The translations under genes and the position numbers were made by a program. From positions 653,100 through 717,099 of the forward strand of contig CAWCOL010000005.1 in assembly GCA_963797175.1 (NCBI GenBank): DNA of 64,000 nucleotides. Direction: 5' to 3'. Below, in pieces: positions 7,658 through 46,616 of the stretch (its first letter is position 1; each line of letters starts with the position of its first letter). The notes under the pieces were generated by a model. That model was not told the DNA's origin. It saw nothing but the letters and a program-made list of their open reading frames with translations, and searched no databases. Source of the stretch: an uncultured Actinomycetes bacterium. Its GTDB lineage: Bacteria; Actinomycetota; Thermoleophilia; Gaiellales; JAICJC01.

Positions 7658-9576
7658 CGGGGAAGGAGGGTCAGGGCTGCGGCGGCCTTGCCGGTGCCGC
7701 CCGCGAGCAGGGCGAGGCCGCCGAGGATGCCAAGGACGGCGAGCCCGGCGATACCGGGGAGCAGCAGGCGCGAGGAGGCGGATGCGAGCGTCGCGGCGGG
7801 CAGATCGACCGGCGCCGTCTCGCAGGGCTGGAGTGCGACGGTCGGCGCAGCGACGTGGGCGCCGCCCTTCCCGGTCGCCCTGGGCGCACCGTGGGGCGCC
7901 TGCTCCGTGCCGTCCTCACACGTCGGCGTCGGGCCGCTGACTCCGCCGGGTCCCCCACCGGGCGGCGGCGGCGTGCCGAGCCCGCTGGGCGTCGTGGTCG
8001 GCGTCGTCGGGGGCGACGTGATGCCCGGCGTCGTCCCCGGGTAGTTCCCGCCGCCCGGATAGGTGCCGCCGCCGCCCGGGGGCGGAGCCGTCGTCTGCGG
8101 GATCGTGGCAGCGGCGGCCGTCAGCGCCGTCTTCATCGCATCGGTCAGCGGCGCGTAGCCCGCGGGCAGCGCCGTCTGTCCGGCGCCGGCGACGTAGGTG
8201 AAGAAGGAGCGCATGGTGATGCCACGGCCGCTGTAGACCTTGTTGGTCGGCACCGTCGCGTAGTCCACGATCGGCATCGGGTAGTCGTTCGGGTCGGTGT
8301 CGGCGAAGTTCGGGCTGACCGTGACGCCGTCCGGGTTGGTGGTTGCGTGCGAGAGCGCGGCGTCGATCGTCGTCGGCGTGGCGTCGACGAACTGGCCCGC
8401 CGCGTTCTCGATCTTGGCGACGGGCAGGCCGAAGTAGGCGGCCTGGCTGGCGTCGATGAAGCCCATGTAGCCGACGCTGAAGTAGTCGGTGTTGAGGTTC
8501 TGGGTCTTGGGGTCGGCGATGGCGTCGGCCAGCTTGTCGCCGCCGACGATGCCCGAGTCCTGCACCAGGTACTTGAGCGGGTAGTCCGCCGAGGCCCCGG
8601 GCCAGTCGGACGGCAGCGCCGATCCGCCGTCAGCCGTCAGCCACGAGGTGAAGAGCAGGTTCGCCGCCGAGTGGTCGCCGCGAACCAGCGGGCGCACCGC
8701 GGGCGGGAAGACGTGGCCCGGGTTCAGCGCGTTGATCTCGGAATCGACGTGCCAGTTCGTCAGCTGGCCGGTGAAGATGCGCGTGACCAGCTCGGGCGTC
8801 AGCTTGAGGTCGGTGACCTGCGCCCCCGGCTCGGAGTGCGCGGCGTCCTGGTCGAACACCTTGTAGGCGAGCACCAGGCCGGACGTCGTCAGCGGCGCGT
8901 ACGTGAAGGTGCGGCCGGCGTGCTTGAGCTGGGCGACCTGGTCGGAGCTGAACGGCAGGCTGGTCACCGCGAAGTCGTTGAGGCCACTGACGAAGTTCGC
9001 CATGCCGTCCAGTGAGTTGGCAGGGATGTAGTTGACGCCGAGCAGGGACGGCGCCTTGCAGGTGTTCAGCTCCCACTGGTAGATGGCGAGGTTCGACTCG
9101 TCGGCGCCGCCGCCCGAGATGGCCGCACCCGAGGGCCTCGGGCAGCCGTCCGGGGTCGGCGCGAACGCCAGGCTCGTGAAGACGCCGCTGGCAAGCGAGG
9201 CGTCGGTGAACAGGCCGAACGAGCAGGGGTGGTTGATGTCGCAGCGGAAGGTGCCAGGGCCCGAGGCCTTGACGTCGCCGACGGTGACGTGCTCGTAAAG
9301 CAGCCCCGAGCCGGTGCCGTCGGTGAAGCCGACGTCGGTGTAGATCGAGGTACAGTCACGCAGCACGCTGGTCGGGTGCAGCGTGCACTGCCGGAAGAAC
9401 ACGACTTGGAGCGGCGTCACGCCCGACCAGGAGACCTTCACGAACTGGCCGTTGCCGAGGCCCGTCGCAGGGGCGACCGTGACCGTGGCGCCGGCGGCAC
9501 CTGCCGGCGCGGCCGGGGAGCCCACGGCCAGCAGGGCGGCGCCGAGGGCCGCGAGAACGAGGATCCGCAGCCTCAC
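7645..9576 (-). CDS. surface-anchored PstS-like binding-fold protein with neocarzinostatin-like N-terminal domain
   Basis: The GTG at 9576 overlaps the upstream stop (GTGA). Signal peptide VRLRILVLAALGAALLAVGSPAAPAGA. A Cys-containing beta domain (ATVTVAPATGLGNGQFVKVSWSG...CSFGLFTD) is followed by a PstS/PBP-like region, a Pro/Gly/Thr linker, a C-terminal hydrophobic helix and a basic tail (..LLPRWRP). Confidence 0.8.
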   Translation of the reverse strand: MRLRILVLAALGAALLAVGSPAAPAGAAGATVTVAPATGLGNGQFVKVSWSGVTPLQVVFFRQCTLHPTSVLRDCTSIYTDVGFTDGTGSGLLYEHVTVGDVKASGPGTFRCDINHPCSFGLFTDASLASGVFTSLAFAPTPDGCPRPSGAAISGGGADESNLAIYQWELNTCKAPSLLGVNYIPANSLDGMANFVSGLNDFAVTSLPFSSDQVAQLKHAGRTFTYAPLTTSGLVLAYKVFDQDAAHSEPGAQVTDLKLTPELVTRIFTGQLTNWHVDSEINALNPGHVFPPAVRPLVRGDHSAANLLFTSWLTADGGSALPSDWPGASADYPLKYLVQDSGIVGGDKLADAIADPKTQNLNTDYFSVGYMGFIDASQAAYFGLPVAKIENAAGQFVDATPTTIDAALSHATTNPDGVTVSPNFADTDPNDYPMPIVDYATVPTNKVYSGRGITMRSFFTYVAGAGQTALPAGYAPLTDAMKTALTAAAATIPQTTAPPPGGGGTYPGGGNYPGTTPGITSPPTTPTTTPSGLGTPPPPGGGPGGVSGPTPTCEDGTEQAPHGAPRATGKGGAHVAAPTVALQPCETAPVDLPAATLASASSRLLLPGIAGLAVLGILGGLALLAGGTGKAAAALTLLPRWRP

Positions 9577-11108
9577 CGGCCGGTCCTCCGCGGCACGCGG
9601 ATGCGGGCCGGGCGGCGGACGCGGCCGACGACCAGCGGCGCCGCCACCAGCGCCACCAGCAGCAGCGCCGCAAGCAGTTGCGGGCTCGCCGACGTCGGGC
9701 TGAGGGATGCCATCTCGTGCAGCGCGGCGTCGAACGAGGCCTGGCGCGCGGTGGCGGACATCGGCGTCACGGTCACGCCGAGCGCGGCCGGGTCGGTCAG
9801 CGAGCCCGGGTTCGCCGCCGCCACGTGCTTGCCGCCCTGCGTCTTCGTGTGCGTCGTCCCCGTCGTGTTCGTTGTTCCGGTCGCCGTCGTGCCGCCCCCG
9901 CCCTGCGGGTTGGTGGTCGGGCCCTGCTGCGGCGAGCCGCCGGTGCCCTGGCCGGTGATGGTCGGGTTCGGGCAGGCCTGCGGCGTCAGCGGTGGCGGGT
10001 TGGGCGCGCCCGGGATCCGGCGCACGGCGTCGAACACGTCGCGCACCAGGTTGGGCGAGAGCGGCGAGTAGCCGAGCGGCGCCGCCTCCTGCTGGCCTGC
10101 GCAGGCGATGTAGATGATCCACTTGCCCAGCACCGCGCCCTTGGCCGGGTCGAGGCCGCTGGTGGGCGTGATCAGGTAGCTGTAGCTGGCCAGCGGATAG
10201 GCGTTCGCCTCGGGCGCGGCGTAGACGCCGCCCAGGTTCTGCGTCAGGTCGGGGTTCAGCGTGGCGTGGGTGAGCGCGACCGCGACGTTGGTGGACGTCG
10301 GCGCCGCATAGTGGCCGCTGGCGTTGCGGATGAACGCCGGCGTCAGCGAGTGCTCGTACACGTAGCCCGCCTCGACGTAGCCGATGCTGCCCAGCCCGAC
10401 GGACGGGTTGGAGATGTAGTTGGCCATGCCGTCGGAGCCGCGCACGGCGACCGAGTGCGGGATGTTGGGCCAGAACTGCACCGGCAGGGTGACGTGGTAC
10501 TGGCGGGCGAACGGGCCCCACGTGGAGGGCGCCAGATGGGCCAGGTAGTCGGCCAGCTTGGCCGAGGTGCCCGAGCCGTCGGAGCGGATGACGGGCGTGA
10601 ACCGCGTCCCGGCGGGGATCACCAGGTGCGGGTTGTCCGCCTTGATCGCGGGATCGTTCCAGCTCGTGACCTTGCCGGTGAAGATCTTCGCGAGCGTCGC
10701 GGCCGACAGCTGGAGGTTCGTCACCTGGTGGCCGCTGGCGTCCTTGAGGTTGTACATGATTGCCGTGCCGCCGGCGACGTCCGGCAGGTACTGGTAGGAG
10801 CGGTGCACCGAGTGCAGCTGCCGCACCTCGTCGGGCAGGAACGGGATCTCGGACGCGGCGAAGTCCACCTGGCCGATCACGTAGAACTGCCGGCCGGCGG
10901 TCGAACCGACGCCCTGGTAGTTGATGTTCAGCCCCTGCCGGGCGGCGTCGGCACGCCACTGGTCGAGCGCGATCTGCACCCACGTCGAGCCCGCGCCGGT
11001 GACGGTCGGCCCGGAAGCCTTCGCGGCCGCCGCCGGCAGCATCACCAGCACGACGGCGGTCGCGGCCGCGAACAGCACGCGGCACATGCGGCCCTTCCGT
11101 CGCGCCAT
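9573..11108 (-). CDS. PstS-family phosphate-binding protein paralog with Thr/Gly-rich linker and C-terminal membrane anchor
   Basis: ATG at 11108 shares one base with the pstB stop. Starts MARRKGRMCRVLFAAATAVVLVMLPAAAAKASG, then GAGSTWVQIALDQW...GVGSTAGR...SDGSGTS, which is typical of PstS. The C-terminus ends ...SASPQLLAALLLVALVAAPLVVGRVRRPARIRVPRRTGR. Confidence 0.85.
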   Translation of the reverse strand: MARRKGRMCRVLFAAATAVVLVMLPAAAAKASGPTVTGAGSTWVQIALDQWRADAARQGLNINYQGVGSTAGRQFYVIGQVDFAASEIPFLPDEVRQLHSVHRSYQYLPDVAGGTAIMYNLKDASGHQVTNLQLSAATLAKIFTGKVTSWNDPAIKADNPHLVIPAGTRFTPVIRSDGSGTSAKLADYLAHLAPSTWGPFARQYHVTLPVQFWPNIPHSVAVRGSDGMANYISNPSVGLGSIGYVEAGYVYEHSLTPAFIRNASGHYAAPTSTNVAVALTHATLNPDLTQNLGGVYAAPEANAYPLASYSYLITPTSGLDPAKGAVLGKWIIYIACAGQQEAAPLGYSPLSPNLVRDVFDAVRRIPGAPNPPPLTPQACPNPTITGQGTGGSPQQGPTTNPQGGGGTTATGTTNTTGTTHTKTQGGKHVAAANPGSLTDPAALGVTVTPMSATARQASFDAALHEMASLSPTSASPQLLAALLLVALVAAPLVVGRVRRPARIRVPRRTGR

Positions 11109-11932
11109 CAGCCGAACCGTCCGTGGACGTAGTCGGCGGTGCGCGGATCGTTGGGCCGCTCGAAGATCTGGGTGGTCTCGCCCGCCTCGACGATCCTGCC
11201 CGGCTCGTTCTCGGCTGCCAGGAAGAAGGCGCAGGACGACGAGACGCGCTGGGCCTGCTGCATGTTGTGCGTGACGATCACGATCGTCACCTCCGAGGCG
11301 AGGTCGAGCACGGTCTCCTCGATCCGCCGCGTCGAGGTCGGGTCGAGCGCGGAGCAGGGCTCGTCCATCAGCAGCACCTCGGGTCTCACGGCCAGCGCGC
11401 GGGCGATGCAGAGCCGCTGCTGCTGGCCACCGGAGAGCGCGCCGCCGGCGTTGCCCAGGCGGTTCTTGACTTCGTCCCAGAGACCGGCCTTGACCAGGCA
11501 CTCCTCGACCAGGTCGTCGGCCCGGCGCACGCGCTTGCCGGACAGGTTGAGTCCGGAGACGACGTTCTGGTAGATGCTCATCGCCGGGAACGGGTTCGGC
11601 TTCTGGAACACCATGCCGATCCGCTTGCGCACCTCGATCGGACGGCGCATGGGGTCGTAGATGTCGTCGCCGTCGAGGTAGACGGCGCCGGACAGCGCCG
11701 ACCCCGGCACCAGCTCGTGCATGCGGTTCAGGATCCGCAGGAAGGTGGACTTGCCGCAGCCGGAGGGGCCGATCAGCGCCGTCACCCGGTTGGCACGCAT
11801 CGGCACCGACACCCGCTCGAGCACCTTGTGCGACCCGAACCAGGCGCTGACGTCGCGGGCCATCAGGCCGCCGGCCACGGCGCCGTTCGGCGACACATGC
11901 GGCATCTCGAGGGTCTGTGCGGATGTGCTCAT
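11108..11932 (-). CDS. pstB: phosphate ABC transporter ATP-binding protein
   Basis: ATG at 11932 overlaps the pstA stop (ATGA). Walker A GPSGCGKST, signature LSGGQQQRLCIARAL, Walker B LLMDEPCSALD, and the C-terminal ...TADYVHGRFG typical of PstB. Confidence 0.95.
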   Translation of the reverse strand: MSTSAQTLEMPHVSPNGAVAGGLMARDVSAWFGSHKVLERVSVPMRANRVTALIGPSGCGKSTFLRILNRMHELVPGSALSGAVYLDGDDIYDPMRRPIEVRKRIGMVFQKPNPFPAMSIYQNVVSGLNLSGKRVRRADDLVEECLVKAGLWDEVKNRLGNAGGALSGGQQQRLCIARALAVRPEVLLMDEPCSALDPTSTRRIEETVLDLASEVTIVIVTHNMQQAQRVSSSCAFFLAAENEPGRIVEAGETTQIFERPNDPRTADYVHGRFG

Positions 11933-13011
11933 CGGGCTCTCCTCGCGAAGTGCCCGATCAGGCGGGCCATGGTGAACAGGGTCAGCACCATCACCATCAG
12001 CACCAGGCAGCCCGTCCAGGCGCGCGCCTGGACGTTGGCCGAGGAGCTCTCGGTGATCTGCTTGTAGATGAAGAGCGGCATCGCCGACTGGGCGCCGCTG
12101 AACGGGTTGGCGTTCATCAGCGACGAGCCGAACGCGGTGGCGATCAGGGGCGCGGTCTCGCCGATGGCCCGGGCGATGCCGAGGATGACGGAGGTGATCA
12201 GGCCGCTGCGGGCGGTCGGGAGCACCACGCTCCAGGTCGTCTTCCACTCGGTCGCGCCCAGCGCCAGCGATGCCTCGCGCAGCCCGTCGGGCACCAGCCG
12301 CAGCACCTCCTCGGAGGTGCGGGTGATGATCGGCAGCATCGAGATCGAGATCGCCAGCGACGCCGCGAAGCCCGACCAGCCGAACTCGCTGACCCAGACC
12401 GCGTAGACGAACAGGCCGGCGAGGATGGTGGGAACGCCGCTCATCGCGTCGACGAAGATCCGCACGGGGCGGCGCAGCGGCCCGCCGATCTCGTTCAGGA
12501 AGATGGCGCAGGCGAAGCCCAGCGGCAGCGACATGGCCACGGCCAGGGCCACCTGCTCAAGCGTCCCCACGATCGCCTGGGCGGCCCCGCCCGACGTGGC
12601 CGCCGAGAGCGGTCCGGTGAACTGCTGCGTCTCGGTGAAGAAGTGGAACGTGAGGGCGTGCACGCCCTTGCTGAAGACGTAGCCCAGGATCAGCACCAGC
12701 GGCACGACCATGGCCAGCGCCGCCGACGCGACGATCACGGTCATCGTCCGGTCGCCGGCCAGCACCGGGCCGTCCAACTCGCGGACGACGATCCAGTAGC
12801 AGCCGATGAAGGCGAGGTACCAGCAGACGGCGAACTCGGCGGGCGCCGAGAACGGCGCGACCTGGAAGATCAGCCAGATCAGCGCGAACGAGGACGCGGC
12901 GGCCCCGGCCAGCACGCCCGCGTCGCGCGTGTTGAAAGCGGCCGGGCGGACCGGCCGGTCATCCACCTGCGCGGGCGTGGCGATGGGCGCGTGCCCGGCG
13001 AGCGTGGCCAT
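11929..13011 (-). CDS. pstA: phosphate ABC transporter permease
   Basis: 360-aa ORF, polytopic. It has the EAS/ALGAT permease loop (LREASLALGATEWKTTWSVVLP) and sits between pstC and pstB. Confidence 0.9.
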   Translation of the reverse strand: MATLAGHAPIATPAQVDDRPVRPAAFNTRDAGVLAGAAASSFALIWLIFQVAPFSAPAEFAVCWYLAFIGCYWIVVRELDGPVLAGDRTMTVIVASAALAMVVPLVLILGYVFSKGVHALTFHFFTETQQFTGPLSAATSGGAAQAIVGTLEQVALAVAMSLPLGFACAIFLNEIGGPLRRPVRIFVDAMSGVPTILAGLFVYAVWVSEFGWSGFAASLAISISMLPIITRTSEEVLRLVPDGLREASLALGATEWKTTWSVVLPTARSGLITSVILGIARAIGETAPLIATAFGSSLMNANPFSGAQSAMPLFIYKQITESSSANVQARAWTGCLVLMVMVLTLFTMARLIGHFARRAR

Positions 13012-33471: not shown

Positions 33472-34434
33472 CTACCGCCACTCGCGGAATCGCTCCTTGA
33501 CGGAGTCGATGCCGTCGGTGCGGAAGCGCTCGACGAGATCCATGATCTCGATCCGCAAGCCCTCGGCGAGCGCGCGGACACGGGAGACGTCGGCGACCGC
33601 GCCGTGCTCGAAGTACTCGACGGCGGCCTGGCCGACGGCGCGGGTGCCGGCGTACGCGATCGCCGACTGCAGCGCCCACCCGGCGAACGGGACGAAGTCG
33701 AGCATCGAGCGGGCGACGGCGCGGAAACCGAACCCTGCGCCCAGCACGCCGAGCAGCTCGATCGCGCGCTGCTGGCCGATCTCCTCGCCGTAGCACGCGG
33801 CCAGCCGCAGCACGAGCCGCATCTGGGTCGCCGTCAGCACCGGCATGTCGGCGCCGGGGATGAAGATCAGCAGCGAAAGGCGGGCGTTGCGCCGCGCGGC
33901 GCGCTCGATCAGGAGCTCCGTCACCTGCGGGCGGAACGCGGGTAGCCCCGACGCCAGGTACGGCCCGGAGTCCCCCGCCCGGATGGCCAGCTCCTTCATC
34001 GCCCGGTCGAGCGGATAGCCGCTGCGCCGGTACGCCAGGATGTCGTCCGGGCTGACACCGCGGACGCGCGACGCCTCGGTGATCGCGTGGCTGGGCAGGT
34101 CGAGCGCCTCCAGCAGCGCCAGCACCGGGCGCTTCGCCGACCCCACCACCTCCAGATCCTTGCGCGTCAGGTCGTCGAGCCCGTTGAGGACGGTGCCTCC
34201 GTAGACCACAACAGCTGCCTTGGACAGCGCCTTGCGGTCGTCCTTCTCCAGGCGGCGGAGCGCGAACGCCTGGGCGAACGGGGCCGGGTCCGGCGCACCC
34301 GCGGCCAGCGCGACCCGCAGCGGATCGACGACGTCGCCGTTGCCGCAGATGACCAGCGGGCGATGCTCCATCGCCTTCTGGTTGTCGCGAACCACGGTGA
34401 ACGCGCTCTTGGCGGTGCTGAACGGGCTAGCCAT
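33472..34434 (-). CDS. DUF697-like domain protein
   Basis: 320-aa ORF. The C-terminal half, LLIFIPGADMPVLTATQMRLVLRLAACYGEE...GFGFRAVARSMLDFVPFAGWALQSAIAYAGTRAVG, resembles DUF697. Its start overlaps the rodA stop by 8 nt. Confidence 0.55.
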   Translation of the reverse strand: MASPFSTAKSAFTVVRDNQKAMEHRPLVICGNGDVVDPLRVALAAGAPDPAPFAQAFALRRLEKDDRKALSKAAVVVYGGTVLNGLDDLTRKDLEVVGSAKRPVLALLEALDLPSHAITEASRVRGVSPDDILAYRRSGYPLDRAMKELAIRAGDSGPYLASGLPAFRPQVTELLIERAARRNARLSLLIFIPGADMPVLTATQMRLVLRLAACYGEEIGQQRAIELLGVLGAGFGFRAVARSMLDFVPFAGWALQSAIAYAGTRAVGQAAVEYFEHGAVADVSRVRALAEGLRIEIMDLVERFRTDGIDSVKERFREWR

Positions 34435-35584
34435 AGCCGTATCCGTAGCCGAACTGCGTCGCCTCGTCGGGCTCGTCCGCGTGGACGTGGATCGACTGGA
34501 GGATCCCGATCGCGAGCAGGTTGGTGAGGGTGTGCGAACCGCCGTAGCTCATGAATGGCAGAGGAATGCCCGTGATCGGGGCGATCCCAATCGTCATTCC
34601 GATGTTGATGAAGACCTGGAACATCAGCATGCTCACCACGCCGGCCGCGACCAGGCTCCCGTAGGTCGATCGCGAGAAGGTGATCAGCTTGAGGCCGCGC
34701 CAGATCAGCAGCATGTAGAGCGCGATCAGCCAGGCGGCCCCGACGAACCCGCGCTCCTCCCCCACCACCGAGAACACGAAGTCCGTCGCGTGCTCGGGCA
34801 GGTAGTCGAGCCGCGTCTGCGTCGCGCCGTGCACGCCCTTGCCGGACACGCCGCCGGAGCCGATCGCGATCACGGACTGGTTGAGGTGGAAGCCGTTGCC
34901 CTGCAGGTCGGTGCGGTCGGGGTGCAGGAAGGCCGTCAGGCGGTCCTGCTGGTAGGGCTGGAGCACCTGCACACCCGCGCCGGGCAGGATCGAGAAGACC
35001 ATCGCGATGCCCACCGCGCCCGCCAGCCCCAGCCAGGCGAAGTGCCGCCACGGCGCGCCGAGCACGAACAGCACGCCCATCGTGATCGCGCCGTAGACCA
35101 GCGCCGTGCCGAAGTCGGGCTCGAGGAAGACGAGCAGCGCCGGCACCGCCATGTAGCCCAGCGCCATCAGCGTCAGCCGGTTGTCGCTGACCGAGCCGCG
35201 GTAGCGCACCAGCATCCCGGCCAGGCCGAGGATCAGCAGCAGCTTGCCGAACTCGGACGGCTGGAACTGGAAGAACCCGAGGTTGATCCAGCGCTGGCCG
35301 CCCTGCACCGACGAGCCGATCGCGAGCACGGCCACGTTGGCCAGCAGCACGAAGCCGTAGACCCACCAGCCCACCCGCCGGAAGACCCGCGGCGGGACCG
35401 CCGCCAGCACCAGCATGCCGATCGTCCCGACGACGACGTAGCCCAGCTCGCGGTCGAAGTAGTACGTCGGCCGGCCGGGGACGTCGTTGCGCGTCGCGTT
35501 CTCGATGATCCACAGGCCGAACGACGAGATGGCCAGCGTCGTCGCCAGCATCAGGTGGTCGAGGTGTCGGAGGTAATGGCGCAT
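34427..35584 (-). CDS. rodA: SEDS-family peptidoglycan polymerase RodA
   Basis: ATG at 35584 (MRHYLRHLDHLMLATTLAISSFGLWII...). Motifs FQPSEFGKLLLIL, TDFVFSVVGEERGF and GIPLPFMSYGGS. It follows mrdA. Confidence 0.9.
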   Translation of the reverse strand: MRHYLRHLDHLMLATTLAISSFGLWIIENATRNDVPGRPTYYFDRELGYVVVGTIGMLVLAAVPPRVFRRVGWWVYGFVLLANVAVLAIGSSVQGGQRWINLGFFQFQPSEFGKLLLILGLAGMLVRYRGSVSDNRLTLMALGYMAVPALLVFLEPDFGTALVYGAITMGVLFVLGAPWRHFAWLGLAGAVGIAMVFSILPGAGVQVLQPYQQDRLTAFLHPDRTDLQGNGFHLNQSVIAIGSGGVSGKGVHGATQTRLDYLPEHATDFVFSVVGEERGFVGAAWLIALYMLLIWRGLKLITFSRSTYGSLVAAGVVSMLMFQVFINIGMTIGIAPITGIPLPFMSYGGSHTLTNLLAIGILQSIHVHADEPDEATQFGYGYGYG

Positions 35585-37626
35585 CAGTGGGACTGGTCGG
35601 TGCCCTTCACCGTGGTCACCCGCTCGTTGGGATGGAAGTACGCCTGGAGCACCTCGCGCGCCGCCGGCGCCGCCGAGACGCCGCCGTGGCCGCCGTTCTC
35701 GATCAGGGCAACGACGACGATCTTGGGATCGTTGTACGGCGCCCAGCCCGCCCACCAGGCGTACGGGTCCTGGTTGATCTTGTCCGCCGTGCCGGTCTTG
35801 CCGGCGACCGCCGGCTGGAACGTGCCGAACACCGAGGTGGACGTGCCGTCCGAGGCGTGGGTGGCCTGGTAGAGGCCCTGGCGGATCTCGTCCACGAACG
35901 TCGGCGAGAGGTGCAGGTTGCGCTGCGGCCGCGGCTGGATCCGCTCCAGCACCCGATGGGTGACCGGGTCGGTGATGTCGCTGCCGACGTGCGGCGTGAC
36001 CAGCGAGCCGCCGTTGGCGAGCGAGCTGTACGCCGTCGCCAGCTGGAGCGGCGTGATCTGCAGGTCGCTCTGGCCGATCGCCATCGTGATGTCGTAGCCC
36101 GGCTGCCAGTCCTGGTCGATCGGGTTCGAGTACGTCTCCAGCCGCCACTGCTTGTCCGGCACGAGGCCGCTGGGCATGTACGTCCGGCCCAGGTCGATCG
36201 GCGACGGCGTGCCGAAGCCGAACCGGCGCAGCAGGATCGGGAAGTGGTCGCTGGTCGAGTTGCCGTAGCGGCGGTAGAACTCGTCGCCGAGCCGGTAGAA
36301 GAACGTGTCGCACGAGATCTCGAGCGCGCGCGGCAGGTCGACGTCGGCGCTGTAGGCCGGGTCCCAGTTGTGGAACACGGTCAGCGGGTCGCCCGGGTCG
36401 GAGAAGGTGGGCGAGCAGAGCCGGTTCGAGCCGGGGCCGATCAGCCCCTCCCACCAGGCGGCCGCGGCGGTGAACGGCTTGAACGTCGAGCCGGGCGCGA
36501 ACAGCCCCTGGAACGACTGGTCGACGAAGGCGCCGGAGCGGAGCGCCTGCTTCACCTGAGCCTGCGAGTTGTAGACGCGCGGGCTGTACGTGGGCACGGA
36601 GGCCATGGCGAGGATCGCGCCGGTCTTGGGGTTCATCGCCACCAGGGCGCCCTTGGCCGCGCTCGTCTCACCGTCGTGGTGGGCGACGTTGATGCCGTCG
36701 TAGATCGCCTTCTCGGCGGCCTGCTGGAGGCGGGCGTCGATCGTCAGCTGCAGCGTGCCGCCCATCTGCGGCTGGGCGACGAACACGGGCTGGCCGACGG
36801 CGTGGCCGCCGGCGTCGAAGCTCTGGTCGAGCTGCCCGGGCTGGCCGCGCAGCAGCCGGTCGTACGTGTACTCGACGCCGCCGTGGCCGACGGACGAGTC
36901 GTACGGCAGGCCCTTGAAGTTCGGGTCCTTGAGATCCTCGGCCTGGATCGTGCTGACGCGCCCCAGGATCGCGCCCATGCCGGGGAAGCTCGAGTACGAG
37001 CGCTTGTAGGTGCGCAGGAAGCGGACGCCCGGGAAGTGGTCGCGGCGCTCGAGCACGTACGCCAGCTGGGCATTCGTCACCGAGCCCAGGGTGACCGGCG
37101 GCCCCGCGTTGATCACGTACCGGGCGTGCCCGGGCCCGTTCAGAAGCGGCTGTTCGTAGGCCTTCCACAGCGCGTGCGGCGTCCGCTTCAGGATCGGTGC
37201 GAGGTCGGCCAGCTCCTGGCAGCGCGACTGGCGCGCCAGCTGGGAGCAGCGGGGCACGGCGCCGACCGGCATCGAGGACAGCAGCGACTCGCAGTGCGCC
37301 GCGGAGGCGCCCAGCGTCGAGCAGTCGAGCGTGCTGGAGATGGTCGAGGGGTCGACCTGGATCAGCGTCGTGGAGACGTTGTCCACCAGGACACGACCGC
37401 TGGAGTCGACGATCTGGCCGCGCTGCGGCGGGATGTCGATGGTGCGCACCTCGTTCTGGGTCGCCTGCGCGACGTAGTGGTCGGAGCGCAGCACCTGGAG
37501 CGCCCACAGGCGGAACAGCAGAACGCCGAACAGCACCGCCGCGACGACGGCGAACGTCGCCGCGCGGACGGCGAGCCGCGTGCCGTCATGCTCGGGCTCG
37601 CGCTTAGGCTGTGGCGGCTGCAGCAC
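35584..37626 (-). CDS. mrdA: penicillin-binding protein 2 (elongation transpeptidase)
   Basis: 680-aa ORF with an N-terminal TM helix and PPQRGQIVDSSGRVLV. The transpeptidase motifs are STFKPF, (S)xN and KTGTA. Confidence 0.9.
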   Translation of the reverse strand: MLQPPQPKREPEHDGTRLAVRAATFAVVAAVLFGVLLFRLWALQVLRSDHYVAQATQNEVRTIDIPPQRGQIVDSSGRVLVDNVSTTLIQVDPSTISSTLDCSTLGASAAHCESLLSSMPVGAVPRCSQLARQSRCQELADLAPILKRTPHALWKAYEQPLLNGPGHARYVINAGPPVTLGSVTNAQLAYVLERRDHFPGVRFLRTYKRSYSSFPGMGAILGRVSTIQAEDLKDPNFKGLPYDSSVGHGGVEYTYDRLLRGQPGQLDQSFDAGGHAVGQPVFVAQPQMGGTLQLTIDARLQQAAEKAIYDGINVAHHDGETSAAKGALVAMNPKTGAILAMASVPTYSPRVYNSQAQVKQALRSGAFVDQSFQGLFAPGSTFKPFTAAAAWWEGLIGPGSNRLCSPTFSDPGDPLTVFHNWDPAYSADVDLPRALEISCDTFFYRLGDEFYRRYGNSTSDHFPILLRRFGFGTPSPIDLGRTYMPSGLVPDKQWRLETYSNPIDQDWQPGYDITMAIGQSDLQITPLQLATAYSSLANGGSLVTPHVGSDITDPVTHRVLERIQPRPQRNLHLSPTFVDEIRQGLYQATHASDGTSTSVFGTFQPAVAGKTGTADKINQDPYAWWAGWAPYNDPKIVVVALIENGGHGGVSAAPAAREVLQAYFHPNERVTTVKGTDQSH

Positions 37627-38152
37627 GATCGATCCGGATCTTGACGGGGAACAGGCGCCGCAGCAGCGGCAGCAGGATGAGCGCGACCAGCGCGGTCTCG
37701 AGGATGGTGGGGATGACCACCTGCGTCAGCGCGAACGCCACCGGCGTGCCCTCGCCCAGCATCACCTGGAGGACGACCATGCCGATCTGCACCAGCGTCG
37801 CGCCGGCGATGACGTAGGCGAACTGGAGCAGCGGCGGCACGGCCGGGGGCGGCGCCGGCACCGGCCCGACCGCCTCGGCGGGCTCGACCCGCATCGCCAC
37901 CCACACGCCGACGCAGACGTAGAGCAGCGAGGAGAGCCCGATGTGCTGGGTGGACTGGGCGTCCAGCAGCACGCCGCCCAGGAACCCGGCCAGCGCGGCC
38001 GCGATCATCCCGCGGCGGATGGCCAGCACCACGACCAGCACCACCATCAGGTCGGGCGCAGCGCCGGTCGGCATCAGCTGCGGCATCATCGAGACCTGGA
38101 GGACGACCAGGAGCAGCGTCGCGACGACGATCTTGAACGGGTCGAGGATCAC
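37604..38152 (-). CDS. mreD: rod shape-determining protein MreD
   Basis: 182-aa polytopic ORF between mreC and mrdA. ...PDLMVVLVVVLAIRRG...GFLGGVLLD... Confidence 0.8.
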   Translation of the reverse strand: MILDPFKIVVATLLLVVLQVSMMPQLMPTGAAPDLMVVLVVVLAIRRGMIAAALAGFLGGVLLDAQSTQHIGLSSLLYVCVGVWVAMRVEPAEAVGPVPAPPPAVPPLLQFAYVIAGATLVQIGMVVLQVMLGEGTPVAFALTQVVIPTILETALVALILLPLLRRLFPVKIRIDRAAAATA

Positions 38153-39023
38153 TTCGTCCCCGGCTTCGCCTCGAGCACGAGCACGTCCGTCAGGTCGCTG
38201 AAGTCCACGAACGGCTTCACCTGGATCGTCTGGAACGTCTGGCCGTCGTCGATCGAGACGCTCGAGACGGTGCCGATCAGGATCCCGCGCGGGAACAGCG
38301 AGGTGAGGTTGGTGTTGCCGGCGTAGCCCGTGGTGACGATGACGTCGCCGTTTCTGACCGCCTCGCCCGGCGCGACGTTCTCGAGCGACAGCAGCCCGGC
38401 GTCGGACGGCAGCAGGATGCCCTTGGCGCTGCCGTCGTTGAGGCCGGCGGAGACGGCGCTCTCGCTGTCGGTGATGAGGCGGACGATGGCCGCCGAGCCC
38501 GTCACCGAGACGACACGGCCGACCAGCGCCCCGCCGTCGTTGTAGGGGCCGATCACCGGGTCGTTGATGTGGACGCCGTCCGCGCTGCCGCTGTTGATCG
38601 TGATCGTGCGGTGGTAGAGATTGGGCGACTGCGCGACCACGGCGGCGCCGATCGGCGTGTAGTCCGACGTCGTGTTGCTGTGCTTGTAGTCGAGCAGCTC
38701 TTGCAGCGTGGCAATCCTCTTCTGATCCTGTTCGGCCTTGAGCGCGTTGGCGCTGGCCCGACGCAGCTCGGCCTCGAGCTTGGTGTTTTCCTGACGGGCA
38801 TCAACCAGCCCGTCGTCCAGTTCCAGCCGTCAACGAAGGGCTGCGTGACGCGGTGCACCACGCCGGAAACGGGTGCCGTGATCGACAGCGCTGAGCGCTG
38901 GATCGACCCGATGACACCACCAGAGCCCTCCCGGAACGAGAGGGTCAGGAGCGTGAGCGAGGCCGCGAGAAGCAGGCCGACGATGACCCGCCGCCGGATG
39001 AGACGGTTGTTGCCGATCAGCAT
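38149..39023 (-). CDS. mreC: rod shape-determining protein MreC, reading frame broken once near 38808
   Basis: The N-terminus (MLIGNNRLIRRRVIVGLLLAASLTLLTLSF...FVDGWNWTTG) is in the 39023 frame. LVDARQENTKLEAELRRA...AVVAQSPNLYHRTITINSGSADGV is in the 38149..38640 frame. The junction ggctggtt looks one base short. Confidence 0.85.
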
Positions 39024-39091
39024 TTGCAGGCGGTTTGCTGGGGCGCAAGTCTACCCCATGGGGTCTTCGGACTTGGTTGGTCCAGGAAACC

Positions 39092-39907
39092 TCAGGAGAT
39101 GGTGCCGTTGATCGCCAGCACCAGCACGACCGTGCCCAGCACGACCCGGTAGGCGACGAAGATGCCCAGTCCGTGGCGCGTCAGATACCGCAGCAGGAAG
39201 GCGATCGAGGCGTAGCCGACGACGAACGCGAGCACCGTGGCGATCGCCGTGGGCACGGCGCCGGCGCCCCCCGCCTCGCCCACCTTGCGCAGCTCGAACA
39301 GGCCGGAGAGCACCACCGCCGGGATCGAGAGCAGGAAGCTGTAGCGGGCCGCTGCTGTGCGGTCGAGCCCGCGCCAGAGTCCGGCGCTGATGGTCGCGCC
39401 CGACCGCGAGACGCCGGGCACCAGGGCGAGCGCCTGGGCGAAGCCGATGACGACGCCGTCGGTGCGGTTGAGGTCGGGCAGGTGGCGCCGCAGCGAGGCG
39501 GTGCGGTCGGCCGCGAGCATGACCAGGCCGAAGACGATCAGGCTGGCGCCGATCAGCTTGAGGTTTCGGGCGCCGGTCTCGATCGAGTCCTTGAAGACGA
39601 ATCCGAAGATCGCGATCGGGATCGTGCCGAGGATGATGTACCAGCCCATCCGCGAGTCGAGCTCGGAGCGGGCGGCCGGGTCACGAAGGCCGCGCAGCCA
39701 GGCCAGGAAGATGCGCAGGATGTCGGCGCGGAAGTAGAGCAGCACCGCCGCCATCGTGCCCAGCTGGACGACCGCGGTGAACGCGGCGCCAGGGTCCTCC
39801 CAGCCCAGGAACGCAGGGACGATGCGCAGGTGCGCCGTGCTGGACACGGGCAGGAACTCGGTGAGGCCCTGGACGACCCCGAGGACGATCGCCTGAAACG
39901 CGGTCAA
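39092..39907 (-). CDS. uppP: undecaprenyl-diphosphate phosphatase
   Basis: 271-aa ORF MTAFQAIVLGVVQGLTEFLPVSSTAHL...SRSGATI... This is the canonical BacA/UppP motif set. Confidence 0.9.
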   Translation of the reverse strand: MTAFQAIVLGVVQGLTEFLPVSSTAHLRIVPAFLGWEDPGAAFTAVVQLGTMAAVLLYFRADILRIFLAWLRGLRDPAARSELDSRMGWYIILGTIPIAIFGFVFKDSIETGARNLKLIGASLIVFGLVMLAADRTASLRRHLPDLNRTDGVVIGFAQALALVPGVSRSGATISAGLWRGLDRTAAARYSFLLSIPAVVLSGLFELRKVGEAGGAGAVPTAIATVLAFVVGYASIAFLLRYLTRHGLGIFVAYRVVLGTVVLVLAINGTIS

Positions 39908-39943
39908 CGGCGGCGGTCGTCGGCGGGAGCGGCACTCACGGAT

Positions 39944-40630
39944 TCAAGCGTACATGGCGGACCGGGACTGTCCAGCCGCACGGATGTCGGCGAAGATGTC
40001 GATCAGCCCGTCCACGGTGGCGAGTGCGCTGGTGCCGACCAGCCGCTCGTGCCACGGCTCAAGCGGCAGCCGGTCGAGCGCCTCCGCCAGGTCGGCCCGG
40101 TGAGGGCCGTCGATCTCGGCGTGGCGCAGCAGGCAGCCGAACGCCGAGCGCGGATGCCCGGTGCGCTCGATCAGCGCCTCCACGGCCGGCGCCGACGGCG
40201 GGATCTCCATCACCGCCATGTGGCCGAGCAGCGCGACCGGATGGCCGCGGCGGATCCACTGGCGCTGGGCGCCCTTGAGGGCCGCGACGGCCGGCGACGG
40301 CACCCGGGTGAGCACGGCGTCGGCCGGTAGCCCCAGCGCCTCCAGATCGGTCAGTGCCCAGGCGTCGTGGCCGCGCTCCTCCTCGATGTGGCCGTCCAGG
40401 TAGACGGCCAGCCCGGCGGCGACCTCGTCCCCGCCCTCCGCGAGCTCCGCCGCCCGGTCGCGTGCGGCCGTCAGCTCGGGCACGGTCTCGCGCATCAGGT
40501 CGTGCAGCGTGGCCAGGTACTCCGGGTAGAGGGCGGCGGCGTCCGGGGCCTCCCAGACGGCCGCGCCCGCGCGGTCGAGCAGCGGCAGCGCGACGTCCAG
40601 CGTTCCCGCCAGGCGGGCCGACGCGGTCAC
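39944..40630 (-). CDS. heme-oxygenase-like (PqqC/TenA-fold) iron-dependent redox enzyme family protein
   Basis: The GTG at 40630 overlaps the radical SAM stop (GTGA). 228 aa, all-helical, with YLDGHIEEERGHDAWALTDLEALG and ...LLGHMAVMEI... ExxH-type motifs. The family assignment comes from motif memory. Confidence 0.55.
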   Translation of the reverse strand: MTASARLAGTLDVALPLLDRAGAAVWEAPDAAALYPEYLATLHDLMRETVPELTAARDRAAELAEGGDEVAAGLAVYLDGHIEEERGHDAWALTDLEALGLPADAVLTRVPSPAVAALKGAQRQWIRRGHPVALLGHMAVMEIPPSAPAVEALIERTGHPRSAFGCLLRHAEIDGPHRADLAEALDRLPLEPWHERLVGTSALATVDGLIDIFADIRAAGQSRSAMYA

Positions 40631-41589
40631 CGGGCACCCGCCGCGAGCTGCTCGGCCAGCGCGGCGACCGGCCGGCGCATGATCGCGCCCATCGCCGCGC
40701 CGGCCGGCTCGAGCGCGTGGCACGTCTCGCAGACGCCGTCACAGACCGGCGTGCCCGCCTCCTCGGCCAGCCACACCGGCCCGAACGCGCGGATCGCCCG
40801 CAGCGCGTCGCGCCGCTCGACCCGGCGGCGCACGGCGGGCCAGCCGTCCCGGCCCGCCTGCCCCAGCCGCAGGTGGGCCGGCACGGGGCCGTCCACGGTG
40901 CGCTGGGAGCAACAGGCCACGATCGTGCCGTCGAAGGCGACGACCGGCCAGGTGGCGAGGTCGCAGCCGCCGCCGGCCGGCGGGCCGTCCGTGCCCTCGG
41001 CCCACGCCGCCGCCCGGCCGACCGGCGCGAGCAGCGAGCCGAGCACCGGCACGCGCCCGCCGAACCGCGCGGCCAGCAGCTGCTCCACCCCGGCCGCCCA
41101 CGGGTCGTCCGCGCGGCCGCGGGTCAGCTGCACGCTGACGTCCATGCCCCACCCGGCGAGCCGGTCGAGCAGCCACACCACGTCCTCTACGGGCACCTCG
41201 GCCTGGTGCCACTCGTCCATGCTCACCGCAACGCCGTCTACCGCGCGCAGCGCTGCCTCGACCGTCTGCGGGATCCGCCGGCGCGCGGCGAACCACGCGC
41301 CCGTCGTCACCTCGGTGGCAACGCCGACGGCGCGGCAGCGATCGGCGATCGCCGCCACCAGCCGCGGCCGCAGCAGCGCCTCGCCGCCCGTCATCAGCAC
41401 GGCCGCGGGCCGGTCCTCCGCGCTGAAGCTGTCCACCAGGGCGAGGAACCGTTCCCCGCCGTGCTGCTCGGAGCGCATCGTCGAGCGGGTCGAGCAGTGC
41501 GCGCAGTGCAGCGGGCAGCGCCTGGTCAGGCTCAGATAGACGCCGGCCGCGGGCACCGACCGCAATGCCAGGAGGTCGGAGAGCCGCAC
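40627..41589 (-). CDS. radical SAM enzyme with Cys-rich SPASM/twitch-like C-terminal region
   Basis: 320-aa ORF. LSLTRRCPLHCAHCS (CxxxCxxC) is near the N-terminus. The C-terminal cysteines are GGGCD...IVACCSQ...PVCDGVCETCH. It starts 9 nt after the small ORF's stop. Confidence 0.85.
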   Translation of the reverse strand: MRLSDLLALRSVPAAGVYLSLTRRCPLHCAHCSTRSTMRSEQHGGERFLALVDSFSAEDRPAAVLMTGGEALLRPRLVAAIADRCRAVGVATEVTTGAWFAARRRIPQTVEAALRAVDGVAVSMDEWHQAEVPVEDVVWLLDRLAGWGMDVSVQLTRGRADDPWAAGVEQLLAARFGGRVPVLGSLLAPVGRAAAWAEGTDGPPAGGGCDLATWPVVAFDGTIVACCSQRTVDGPVPAHLRLGQAGRDGWPAVRRRVERRDALRAIRAFGPVWLAEEAGTPVCDGVCETCHALEPAGAAMGAIMRRPVAALAEQLAAGAR

Positions 41590-41598
41590 GACGCGTCC

Positions 41599-41817
41599 CT
41601 AGTACGACATGCGGCCGACGGCGTCGGTGACCGGCCGGAACTCGGCACCGCCGAGCACCTTGACCTTGTTGTTCATCGAGACGAGGGCCGCCACCTCGTG
41701 CCGGGAGAGGTGCTGCAGCAGCTGGTTCTGCTCCTCGGACAGCTCGTTGACGGGGAAGCCCTGTGCCTCCAGGTCGGCGATCGGGTCATACGGCGGGCGG
41801 GGGCGATCATCGGACAC
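41599..41817 (-). CDS. 72-aa candidate precursor/partner peptide of the radical SAM enzyme
   Basis: GTG at 41817 is preceded by GGAGG with 6-nt spacing. MSDDRPRPPYDPIADLEAQGFPVNELSEEQNQLLQHLSRHEVAALVSMNNKVKVLGGAEFRPVTDAVGRMSY has an acidic helical N-terminal part and a C-terminal ...GRMSY. Confidence 0.65.
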   Translation of the reverse strand: MSDDRPRPPYDPIADLEAQGFPVNELSEEQNQLLQHLSRHEVAALVSMNNKVKVLGGAEFRPVTDAVGRMSY

Positions 41818-41897
41818 GGCCTACCTCCGGAGTCGATGCGAGGTTCGTGAACCTATCAGATGCCTGGAAGGTCGCCGCGGCTGGATACACTCGCGAC

Positions 41898-44888
41898 ATG
41901 GCGGGGGCCGCGGAGCGACGCGTGGTGACGGTGCTGTTCGCCGACCTGGTCGGATCGACCGGTCTGGCGGAGCGGCTCGACGCAGAGGCGGTGCGGGCGC
42001 TGCTGGAGCAGTACTTCGCGCTGGCCGCGCGGGCGATCGAGGCCCACGGCGGGACGCTCGAGCGCCTGATCGGCGATGGCCTGCTGGCGGTGTTCGGGCT
42101 CGACCCGACGCACGAGGACGACGCGCTCCGGGCCGTCCGCGCAGGCCTCGAGCTGCGGGCCGCGCTGGAGGAACTCGAGCCCGAGGCGGAGGGCCGCTGG
42201 GGCGGGCCGCTGGGCGTGCGCATCGGCATCAACACCGGCGAGGTCGTGGTCGGCGAGACCGGCGAGGGCGTCCGCACCGTGATCGGCGACGCGGTCAACG
42301 TCGCCGCCCGGCTCGAGCAGGACGCGTTGCCCGGGCAGATCCTGATCGGGGCGGTGACGCAGGGCATGGTCGCCGCGTGGGCCGAGCTGGAGCCGCTCGA
42401 GCCGCTCGAGCTGCGCGGCAAGCGGGAGCCGGTGCCGGCCTGGTCGGTGGTGGCCGTGGACGATCCCACCGCACCGGCCGACCGTCCCCACGACGTGCCC
42501 CTGGCGGGCCGCGAGCGGGAGCTGGCGCTGTTGCTGGACGTGGTCGAGCGATGCACGGACGACCGCGCCGCGCACCTGGTCACGCTGCTCGGCCCGACCG
42601 GCATCGGCAAGTCGCGGCTGGTGCGCGAGTGCGTGGACCGGCTGGGCGACCGGGTGACGCCGGTGGTCGGCCGCTGCCTGCCCTACGGTGACGGCATCAC
42701 CTTCTGGCCGCTGAACGAGGTGGTCGGCCAGCTGTGCGCGGGCGGCGATCCCGGCGAGCTGCTGGGCGACGGCGGCGAGGCGGCCGCCGCGGCCTCGCTG
42801 ATCCGCGCCGCGACCGGCCGCGGCACGGCCGTCGGCGGCCTCGACGAGACGTTCTGGGCCGTGCGGCGGCTGTTCGAGGCGGCGGCCCGGCCGCGGCCGC
42901 TGGTCTGCGTGTTCGACGACGTCCAGTGGGCCGAGCCGACCATGCTCGACCTGATCGAGCACCTGGCGGACTGGATCGCGGACGCCCCGGTCACGCTGAT
43001 CTGCATCGCCCGCCCCGAGCTGCTGGAGCGCCGCACCGGCTGGGCTGGGGGCAAGCTGCGCGCGACGTCCGCGATGCTGGGGCCGCTCGACCCGCGGCAC
43101 TGCGACGAACTGGTCGACCGCTTCCTCAGCCAGATGGGCGGTTCCGCCGGCTCGCTGCCCGCCGAGACCCGCCGCGAGGTGTTGGAGGCGACCGAGGGCA
43201 ACCCGCTCTTCATCGAACACCTGCTGCGCGCCGTCGGCCCCGACGGCGCCGCCCCGGCCGAGATGCCGCCCACCGTGCAGTCGGCGATCGCGGCCCGCCT
43301 CGACGCGCTCTCGCCGGCCGAGCGGCGCGCATGCGAGCTGGGCGCGGTGATGGGCAAGGTGTTCGCGGCGTCGGCCATGGAGGCGCTGGACGACGAGGAC
43401 GCCGCCGAATCGCTCGGTGCGCTGGCCCCGCTTGTCCGTAAGGGCATCCTCCGCTCCTCTCCGGTTCACCTGGGCGACCGCGACGCCTACCGCTTCACCC
43501 ACCTGCTGATCCGCGACGTCACGTCGGCGCGGATGTCCAAGCAGCGGCGCGCCGAGCTCCACGAGCGCTTCGCCGGCTGGCTGCGCGGCCGGTCCGACCC
43601 GGCGCCCGACGCGCTGGTCGGCTACCACCTGGAGCAGACCGTGGTGCTCCGCCGCGCGATCGGCCTGGCCGGGCCCGAGCTGGACACCGTCGCCGTGGAC
43701 GCGGCGACGCTGCTGACCTCCTCGGCACGGCGCTCGGAGGCGATGTTCGACCTCCCGGCAGCGGTGCGCCAGCTGGAACGGGCCGAGCTGCTGCTGCGCT
43801 GCGACGAGCCGCGGCGGCTGGAGCTGCTGCCCGCGCTGGCCCGCACCCGGCACCGGTCGGGCGACCTGGCCGGCGCCGGCGCGGTGCTGGACGAGGCGAT
43901 CGTGGGCGCGGCCGCCTCGGGTGACCGCCGCACGGAGGCGCTGGCCGCGCTGGGGCGGGCGGTGACCCGGATCGACGCGCCCGGCGGGCGCGGCGAGCTG
44001 GCGCGAGCGGCCCAGCGGGCGGCCGACGTGTGCGAGGCGGCGGGCGACGGCCGCGGGCTGGCCCAGGCGTGGGCGCGGCTGGCGCTGGTGCGCCAGATGG
44101 AGGGCCGCTACGGCTCGGCGGCCGAGGCCCACGAGCGGGCGCTGGGGCACCTGTCGCCGGGCGAGCCGGAGCAGCTGCTGCTGGTCGGGAACCTCGCCCT
44201 CTGCCATGCCCTCGGGCCGCTGCCGGCCGCTCAGGCCCTGGCCCGGTGCGAGCGGCTGGAGGCCTCCTGCGAGGGCTCCTCGCCGATGACGGCGGCCCTC
44301 GTCGCCGGCCCGGCGGCGGTGCTGCGCGCCCACACCGGCGCGATCGCGGCGGCCCGAGCCCAGATCGAGCATGCGCGGCACCTGGCCGAGGACATCGGCG
44401 AGGCCGAGGCGGCCGGTCACATGCGGATGTTCAGCGGGATGATCGAGGAGCTGGCCGGCGACCTCGACGCCGCGTTCGCCCACCACCAGGCGGCGGCCGA
44501 GTGGCTGGAGCGGGCCCAGGACGACCCGGCCGAGGCGCTGGTCGGCATGAGCCGCTGCCTCACCCGCCAGGGCGACGCCATCCGCGGACGGGAGCTGGCC
44601 GAACGGTGCAGCGGCGCCGTTCCCGACGACCTCAACGTGCAGGTGCTGTGGCGCGTGGCGCTGTCACGAGCCGACGCCGCGCTGGGCGAGCCCGCCCGGG
44701 CCCGCTGCGCCGCCGAGCAGGCGGTCGAGCTGACCCGGCGGATGGAGTGCCCGGAGCTGCTGGCCGACGCGCTGCGGGCGCTGGGATCTGCCCTCGCCGC
44801 GGCCGGCGGCGACGGGAGCGTCCAGATGGGCGAGGCGCTGGCGGTGGACGAGCGCAAGGGGCTCGCCGTCCGCGTCGGCCTGACGAAG

Positions 44889-44897
<9 letters not shown>
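41898..44897 (+). CDS. class III adenylate/guanylate cyclase domain - AAA/NTPase - TPR-like large regulator (STAND-type)
   Basis: ATG at 41898 (MAGAAERRVVTVLFADLVGSTGLAERL...IGDGLLAVFG...GINTGEVVVGE...IGDAVNVAARLE), then the P-loop LLGPTGIGKSRLV and a long Ala/Leu-rich helical repeat region. 999 aa. Confidence 0.85.

Positions 44898-46616
<1,719 letters not shown>

Follow-up and report, generated by a model that had tools for sequence, protein, structure and literature searches.

The 64,000-nucleotide stretch analysed here (hereafter the window; contig CAWCOL010000005.1, forward-strand positions 653,100 to 717,099) comes from an uncultured Actinomycetes bacterium of the Gaiellales and carries, on its reverse strand, a cassette of three adjoining genes. 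These encode a small peptide, a radical S-adenosylmethionine (rSAM) enzyme and a haem-oxygenase-like dimetal oxidase (HDO). An earlier note, made from the DNA letters without database searches, had singled out the cassette as a candidate new system for a ribosomally synthesised and post-translationally modified peptide (RiPP) or a peptide-derived cofactor. Comparison with relatives in other genomes makes it probable that the cassette is a RiPP-type precursor and maturase set acting on a C-terminal motif of the peptide.

The peptide gene (41599–41817, reverse strand) encodes 72 amino acids ending in VTDAVGRMSY. Its GTG start at 41817 is preceded by a Shine-Dalgarno sequence, GGAGG (41824–41828, reverse strand), with a 6-nt spacer. 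Two parts can be told apart in the product, a leader domain at residues 11–51 (41665–41787, reverse strand), which matches the NCBIfam model NF045560, and a proposed core or modification site, G68-R-M-S-Y72 (41602–41616, reverse strand), marked out by conservation in relatives and followed directly by the stop codon. The rSAM open reading frame (ORF; 40627–41589, reverse strand) begins 9 nt past the TAG stop of the peptide gene, at GTG 41589, and encodes a 320-residue enzyme, assigned below to clade A, with the motifs CPLHCAHC, GGGCD, ACCS and CDGVCETCH. Its stop overlaps the start of the HDO gene within GTGA (40627–40630), and the HDO gene (39944–40630, reverse strand) encodes 228 residues that include the motif HIEEERGH. 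ORFs, coordinates, junctions, Shine-Dalgarno sequence and named motifs all agree exactly with the description in the earlier note.

The three ORFs are real genes, because codon-position GC, scores against family models and a mostly synonymous pattern of substitution all point the same way. At 72% GC, the GC content of third codon positions (GC3) is 0.93–0.96 for the ORFs, with a GC3 of 0.93 and a second-position value (GC2) of 0.37 for the peptide. The rSAM protein matches Pfam Radical_SAM at 31.8 bits (cut-off 29.5), the oxidase matches Pfam PF14518 (Haem_oxygenas_2) at 39.6 bits (cut-off 28.9), and residues 11–51 of the peptide match NF045560, the ‘aroma-sacti cluster domain’, at 36.8 bits (cut-off 30). 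Compared with L082, a 93%-identical metagenomic relative, the peptide ORF carries 10 synonymous and 5 non-synonymous substitutions; GRMSY is untouched, and all three genes are kept in this close relative. Despite these 15 coding substitutions, the 48 nt 5′ of the peptide start (41818–41865, including the Shine-Dalgarno sequence) are identical in L082, while the sequence farther upstream diverges. This identity suggests a conserved 5′ untranslated region or operator within the 80-nt divergent intergenic region described below. A promoter and terminator scan of positions 38900–42300 was empty, which is uninformative for a high-GC actinobacterium.

Conservation of the peptide and its C-terminus

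Relatives of the cassette were collected by scanning a one-genome-per-species collection with an alignment of 18 rSAM sequences (A1), and 393 stretches were found to encode a relative. The neighbourhood counts given here cover 80 fetched loci of these 393 matching stretches, all anchored on the rSAM gene (individual loci are cited by L numbers), in which peptide and oxidase genes were sought by iterated hidden Markov model (HMM) searches over six-frame ORFs. The loci span Actinomycetota (Gaiellales, Streptomyces, Kitasatospora, Streptosporangiales and Microthrixaceae), Chloroflexota, Pseudomonadota, Bacteroidota, Cyanobacteriota, Myxococcota and Planctomycetota; the other taxa represented include Limnobacter and further Burkholderiales, Mesorhizobium, Nannocystis, Chitinophagaceae, Symploca and Planctomycetaceae. 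C-terminal tail statistics refer to 78 related peptides, and rSAM residue statistics to 81 clade-A and 43 clade-B sequences. Two of the largest clusters of neighbouring ORFs, which were antisense or of low complexity and lacked any Pfam match, were discarded.

The small ORF proved to be conserved beside homologous rSAM genes, the point on which the earlier note had made its reading depend. A homologue is present in 76 of the 80 loci, 74 of them found by HMM and two more (L004 and L051, with tails ending VGAVSY and NGYIYF) by motif, and an HDO gene likewise accompanies the rSAM gene in 76/80. Two loci depart from this linkage, L005 (Planobispora) and L012 (Planotetraspora), each with a pair of rSAM genes of clades A and B and no detectable HDO or peptide gene within 6 kb. 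The commonest gene orders are rSAM-HDO-peptide (26 loci), rSAM-rSAM-HDO-peptide (19) and peptide-rSAM-rSAM-HDO (12); peptide-rSAM-HDO, the order in the window, occurs in three (L002, L003 and L015), with variants in L001, L004 and L011. In L017, L024 and L061 the peptide gene is repeated in tandem, to two or three copies whose tails differ, an arrangement typical of RiPP precursors.

All members share a common anatomy, in which a conserved leader of about 44 amino acids, aligned across 79 peptides from 74 loci, is followed by a tail of 12–35 amino acids. The tails vary outside two positions. Position −5 is glycine in every one of the 78 peptides, and the last residue is always aromatic, namely Phe in 41, Trp in 31 and Tyr in six, giving a motif G-x-x-x-[F/W/Y]-COOH that the GRMSY of the window fits. 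Less strictly kept are a glycine at −4 (59/78) and a Leu, Val or Ile at −2 (67/78). Peptides of the Gaiellales group end in [V/F]-G-x-x-[G/S]-[Y/F], and a terminal Trp is confined to peptides from two-rSAM loci (in L039 the second copy is split across reading frames). The earlier suggestion that the C-terminal Ser-Tyr is the modified site therefore holds for its tyrosine, as an aromatic residue at −1 is universal, but not for its serine, which is not conserved.

The leader had been catalogued before this work, since NF045560 recognises it in the window and equally in the Chitinophagaceae locus L020 (37.0 bits), and the peptide family is therefore not unrecorded. A weaker match links it to NF045559, a model for StsA-related sactipeptide precursors (E = 0.015 for the window peptide, E = 2e-6 for that of L020). 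The window peptide contains no cysteine; therefore no thioether is possible, and it lacks what defines a sactipeptide. What it does have is the general make-up of a RiPP precursor, namely a conserved leader with a variable tail, genetically linked to a modifying enzyme across genomes. Together with the EpeE-like rSAM enzyme described below and the presence of the precursor at nearly all loci, this upholds the earlier view of a candidate RiPP-type system. Its claim to be new survives in part: the family has been noticed bioinformatically through its leader, but our search of the full-text literature found no description of the cassette, its product or its chemistry. Single-sequence searches with the 72-residue peptide returned near-identical copies only. 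One further hit in a library of 1.84 billion proteins, P0243, a 3620-residue bactofilin/Kelch protein, was rejected as a spurious, repeat-driven match.

The radical SAM enzyme and the oxidase

The SAM-cluster motif CxxxCxxC of the rSAM enzyme is formed by C25, C29 and C32, and these three residues, along with C209, C226, C287 and C290, are invariant in 81/81 clade-A sequences. An AlphaFold2 (AF2) model of the window enzyme (mean predicted local distance difference test score, pLDDT, 93) places the start of the rSAM core at residue 16. When this model was searched with Foldseek, the nine best matches were EpeE structures (8AI1–8AI6), with TM scores of 0.66–0.68 over about 305 residues, and the next reached at most 0.55. 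A profile of the rSAM family compared with the PDB put YydG/EpeE (E = 1e-12) ahead of PqqE (4e-8). The enzyme thus falls outside characterised non-peptide families, its closest relative being the RiPP epimerase EpeE/YydG. EpeE holds one auxiliary cluster in an extended twitch domain (‘T-SPASM’), uses C223 as the hydrogen-atom donor to a Cα radical, and epimerises Val4 and Ile12 of its substrate (PMC13012085). Its C206, C222 and C223 align with C209, C226 and C227 of the window enzyme, and its C-terminal CxxC aligns with C287/C290. Alignment and model together predict an EpeE-type extended twitch in the window enzyme, in which C209, C226, C287 and C290 ligate the only auxiliary [4Fe-4S] cluster.

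The earlier note compared the Cys-rich tail with SPASM/twitch auxiliary-cluster domains. Of this, the twitch part stands, in its single-cluster form; a SPASM domain of the MftC and PqqE kind does not, for no Pfam SPASM match was obtained at E ≤ 1, and four invariant C-terminal cysteines compare with seven in the SPASM motif. Models for MftC, PqqE and StsB scored 19–28 bits on the window enzyme against cut-offs of 265–625. Even TIGR04078, the equivalog model for YydG/EpeE, gave 41.9 bits (25–51 for relatives) against a cut-off of 300, and identity to EpeE is 17–18%; rSAM enzyme and oxidase alike, in the window and in relatives, fall below the cut-off of every NCBIfam model. No Pfam match to a RiPP recognition element (RRE) or PqqD domain was found in the rSAM enzyme, and no such gene among the conserved neighbours.

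The equivalent of the EpeE donor C223 is C227 in the window, where it forms a CC pair with C226, and is present in 59/81 clade-A enzymes. A second, paralogous rSAM enzyme (clade B, 43 sequences) is encoded between the clade-A gene and the HDO gene in 43 loci (for example L031, 7076–8107), and here the CC pair is kept in 43/43. At least one rSAM enzyme has the pair in every two-rSAM locus analysed, as do all single-rSAM loci but two; the window encodes a single clade-A enzyme with the pair. It differs from its homologues in lacking a C-terminal extension of about 30 amino acids. A database entry resembling an rSAM–MFS fusion (P0001), in which about 250 residues (79% of its length) 99% identical to the window enzyme run into MFS transporter sequence, was rejected as a probable assembly chimera, coming from a 2082-bp metagenome contig that diverges mid-gene.

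The oxidase had been likened to haem-oxygenase-like or PqqC-fold iron enzymes, and the first half of that comparison is borne out by the Pfam match, the fold and the metal ligands, whereas no PqqC model in Pfam or NCBIfam matched. E85, E142 and H170 are invariant, with conservation of 90% or more at E84, H88, D174 and H177; from this alignment the protein is predicted to have a full 3-His/3-carboxylate dimetal site. The AF2 model (pLDDT 97) has a haem-oxygenase-like fold, with the uncharacterised DUF structure 3DDE closest (TM 0.78, 19% identity), followed by TenA homologues, UndA and CADD.

Set beside known pathways, the cassette shows partial likenesses. The EpeX/EpeE (YydF/YydG) system of Bacillus subtilis also has an rSAM enzyme acting on a ribosomal peptide without an RRE (here, the substrate being our reading), and EpeE is the best match in sequence and fold, with a single auxiliary cluster and the Cys pair in common. 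It differs in its unrelated precursor, in that the target here is apparently a C-terminal G-x-x-x-aromatic motif, and in an operon that has a protease and an ABC transporter but no HDO. The mycofactocin and PQQ (pyrroloquinoline quinone) parallels drawn in the earlier note hold as analogies, not as homology. In mycofactocin biosynthesis a short ribosomal peptide, MftA, is processed by an rSAM enzyme at its C-terminal Gly-Val-Tyr and a small molecule is made from the C-terminal residues; however, MftC is a SPASM enzyme with two auxiliary clusters that needs the RRE protein MftB, TIGR03962 gives 19.4 bits here against a cut-off of 265, no MftD, MftE or MftF genes are present, and the mycofactocin system has no HDO.

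The PQQ pathway likewise combines a peptide, an rSAM enzyme and a haem-oxygenase-fold oxidase (PqqA, PqqE and PqqC), and the Glu-x-x-x-Tyr spacing of PqqA, i to i+4, equals that of Gly-x-x-x-aromatic here. Unlike the present cassette, PqqE is a SPASM enzyme served by PqqD as RRE (TIGR02109, 27.5 bits against 381) and PqqC is metal-free, as opposed to the full dimetal ligand set of the window oxidase; the window motif, moreover, lies at the extreme C-terminus. With the StsA/StsB sactipeptides the cassette shares the leader domain recognised by NF045560, but the StsB model NF045574 gives 22.7 bits against 625. Model scores and missing defining features led us to reject membership in the mycofactocin, PQQ and sactipeptide families.

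On the oxidase side, UndA, CADD and VarO have the same seven-helix haem-oxygenase-like fold and 3-His/3-carboxylate site, and CADD excises a tyrosine side chain from a protein. The one haem-oxygenase-like enzyme that we found genetically linked to a RiPP is VarO, for which desaturation of the arginine side chain of the thiovarsolin tripeptides has been proposed (PMC6511847). It is the sole RiPP-linked example cited in a 2026 review of HDOs, according to which the members characterised so far act mostly on free amino acids or fatty acids (PMC13108848). In the searchable literature we found no description of an HDO paired with an rSAM enzyme on a peptide.

Regulator, neighbouring genes and genomic setting

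Divergent from the cassette lies a gene that the earlier note had overlooked (41763–44897, forward strand, for the longest ORF), encoding a class III nucleotidyl cyclase domain (Pfam Guanylate_cyc, 1.6e-20), an AAA_16 ATPase domain (3.7e-21) and a TPR-like C-terminus. Read from 41763, the ORF overlaps the peptide gene, which lies on the other strand. Since the cyclase domain begins just past Met46, translation more probably starts at ATG 41898, leaving the 80-nt divergent intergenic region. Homologues with 28–42% identity, aligned over up to about 1000 amino acids in the closest, adjoin the cassette in 52/80 loci, and in L001–L004 and L011 the homologue is likewise divergent, at the same place (40–42% identity over about 980 amino acids). 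Judged by this homology the regulator is a conserved fourth gene of the locus, and it probably controls expression of the cassette.

Actinobacterial relatives add further genes, for an S8 protease (51 loci), a GAF-domain protein (45, of which 44 lie beside the S8 gene) and an MFS transporter (42). No homologue of any of these three was found anywhere in the 64-kb window, and proteobacterial and Bacteroidota loci are likewise minimal. The absence of an RRE, peptidase and exporter described in the earlier note is thus confirmed for the window, but its phrase ‘unusually minimal’ needs amending: there is a divergent regulator, and, since relatives carry S8, GAF and MFS genes, ‘minimal’ is apt for this lineage but not for the family at large. 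In some 45–51 actinobacterial loci an S8 subtilase gene is followed directly by the GAF gene and accompanied by a cyclase-domain regulator (L031, 4484–5993; L045, 11366–12812). The combination of cyclase and GAF domains suggests that the pathway has an attached module for cyclic-nucleotide signalling. In the Chitinophagaceae locus L020 a gene for a TonB-dependent receptor (9547–12066) follows peptide-rSAM-rSAM-HDO, which may hint at uptake of a product.

On the other side of the cassette, 36 nt past the HDO stop and on the same strand, lies an ORF (39092–39907, reverse strand) that we take, from reading its sequence, to encode an undecaprenyl-diphosphatase-like protein (UppP/BacA); L002 and L004 have a distant homologue (31% identity) at the corresponding place, and the gene may be co-transcribed with the cassette, with a conceivable bearing on immunity or the envelope. 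The wider region (34427–46254) is syntenic with the Gaiellales-type loci L001–L004 and L011, in the order mreB / regulator / peptide-rSAM-HDO / (uppP) / mreC-mreD-pbp2-rodA. Across these loci identity is 90–96% for MreB, about 52% for PBP2, about 45% for MreC and about 50% for the rSAM enzyme. Because the cassette, at about 50% identity between its proteins, has diverged to an extent similar to neighbouring pbp2 and mreC, long vertical inheritance is implied, and these sequence comparisons make it look like an ancient insertion into a cell-shape locus, passed on vertically.

Proposed pathway and competing explanations

From the gene content, conservation, folds, ligand sets and tail motif we infer a substrate, a site, an order of steps, a chemistry and a product as follows. 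The 72-residue peptide would be the substrate, its first 50 or so residues serving as leader and its last five, G-R-M-S-Y-COOH, as core. The rSAM enzyme would bind the peptide directly and abstract a hydrogen atom within the C-terminal pentapeptide, most likely from a Cα by analogy with EpeE. Our preferred guess for what follows is that the invariant Gly(−5) becomes linked to the ring of the C-terminal aromatic residue, i to i+4 as in PqqA Glu-x-x-x-Tyr, although, as the specific product, such a cross-link is on present evidence rather unlikely; alternatively, Cys227 might quench the radical to give a D-residue. With the free C-terminal carboxylate as its probable anchor, the HDO would then use O2 to desaturate, decarboxylate or hydroxylate the C-terminal aromatic residue, and a protease encoded elsewhere would release a short modified C-terminal fragment. 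Carried to its furthest form, the scheme is tentative, and we would give it less than even weight: an EpeE-like rSAM enzyme and then an O2-dependent diiron HDO would act on a G-x-x-x-aromatic C-terminus to yield a new cross-linked or oxidised aromatic small molecule, either a cofactor resembling PQQ or mycofactocin or a signal, from what would be the first RiPP class to combine rSAM and HDO enzymes, vertically inherited in a Gaiellales-type mreBCD locus.

Several observations weigh against this scheme. No chemistry has been demonstrated anywhere for the cassette family, and spacing and invariance are the only grounds for the glycine–aromatic link. EpeE D210 aligns with Pro215 of a WPVV segment, a proline that is invariant in A1 and at least 90% conserved in alignment A3. 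In 22/81 clade-A enzymes, almost all from two-rSAM loci, the equivalent of Cys227 is replaced, mostly by Gly or Ala; a single epimerase function throughout clade A is therefore unlikely, though the loss does not in itself identify a reaction type. Residue −2 is Gly or Ser in the Gaiellales group, not Leu, Val or Ile. The window rSAM enzyme has H119G at a near-invariant site (His in 80/81 others), and the window HDO has Y123R, Y124Q and H128R at near-invariant positions; all cluster and metal ligands are intact despite these substitutions. Finally, with neither protease nor exporter, the window fits a secreted natural product less well.

Some of these points bear equally on an epipeptide-like outcome, which we regard as possible but doubtful. 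The rSAM enzyme would then be a Cα epimerase with Cys227 as donor, leaving one or more D-residues in the tail, and the HDO would add only a hydroxyl group or a double bond. EpeE is indeed the nearest relative in both sequence and structure, the window has the CC pair aligned with C222/C223, the pair is retained in at least one rSAM enzyme at every two-rSAM locus analysed and at all single-rSAM loci but two, and the aliphatic residue that most peptides have at −2 recalls the Val4 and Ile12 that EpeE targets. On the other hand, the TIGR04078 score and the 17–18% identity are low, Cys227 has been lost in 22/81 clade-A enzymes, D210 is not conserved and residue −2 of the window peptide is Ser. An epimerase would also leave the invariance of Gly(−5) and of the terminal aromatic residue unexplained. 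If the product were instead a peptide-derived intracellular redox cofactor or signal of the PQQ or mycofactocin type, not secreted and a housekeeping trait in this lineage, the lack of an exporter or protease in the window and in its five syntenic Gaiellales-type counterparts would make sense, as would the same mreB–mreC site in all six, divergence like that of pbp2 and mreC with the long vertical inheritance it implies, and the occurrence of a peptide, an rSAM enzyme and a haem-oxygenase-fold oxidase in the PQQ pathway too. We nevertheless think this version unlikely, as genes for cofactor-dependent oxidoreductases are not linked to the cassette, the MFS and S8 genes of Streptomyces relatives are typical of secreted products, tails vary between lineages more widely than is usual for a cofactor, and the PqqE, PqqC and MftC models are unmatched.

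Two further explanations question the peptide or the cassette itself. The small ORF might be a structural or regulatory partner of an rSAM–HDO pair acting on a small molecule or another protein, and the long, domain-like leader (about 44 amino acids), the lack of an RRE and of a local protease, and the preference of characterised HDOs for free amino acids or fatty acids are all compatible with this. An invariant C-terminal G-x-x-x-aromatic motif beside hypervariable tails, the tandem peptide genes in some loci, the relation of the leader to sactipeptide precursors and the peptide-modifying activity of the nearest rSAM relative make such a role very improbable. No more credible is a cassette that is decaying or inactive in this genome. 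The substitutions H119G, Y123R, Y124Q and H128R, a missing glycine in the LEGxPP segment and the absent C-terminal extension of the rSAM enzyme could be read in that way, but no cluster or metal ligand has been lost, the ORFs are unbroken and translationally coupled, synonymous changes outnumber non-synonymous ones in the peptide (10 versus 5), a close relative keeps the three genes, and GC3 remains at 0.93–0.96.

If the proposed pathway is correct, the cassette would represent a new RiPP class in which an EpeE-type rSAM enzyme is paired with a dimetal HDO, a pairing without precedent in our searches. HDO chemistry would then reach peptide C-termini, and the range of EpeE-type enzymes would go beyond the epipeptides of Firmicutes. 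The family is also present in culturable Streptomyces and Kitasatospora, and its invariant five-residue motif offers a precise, testable target. In the lineage of the window, the position between mreB and mreC and the lack of an exporter raise the possibility that the cassette plays a physiological rather than an antibiotic role.

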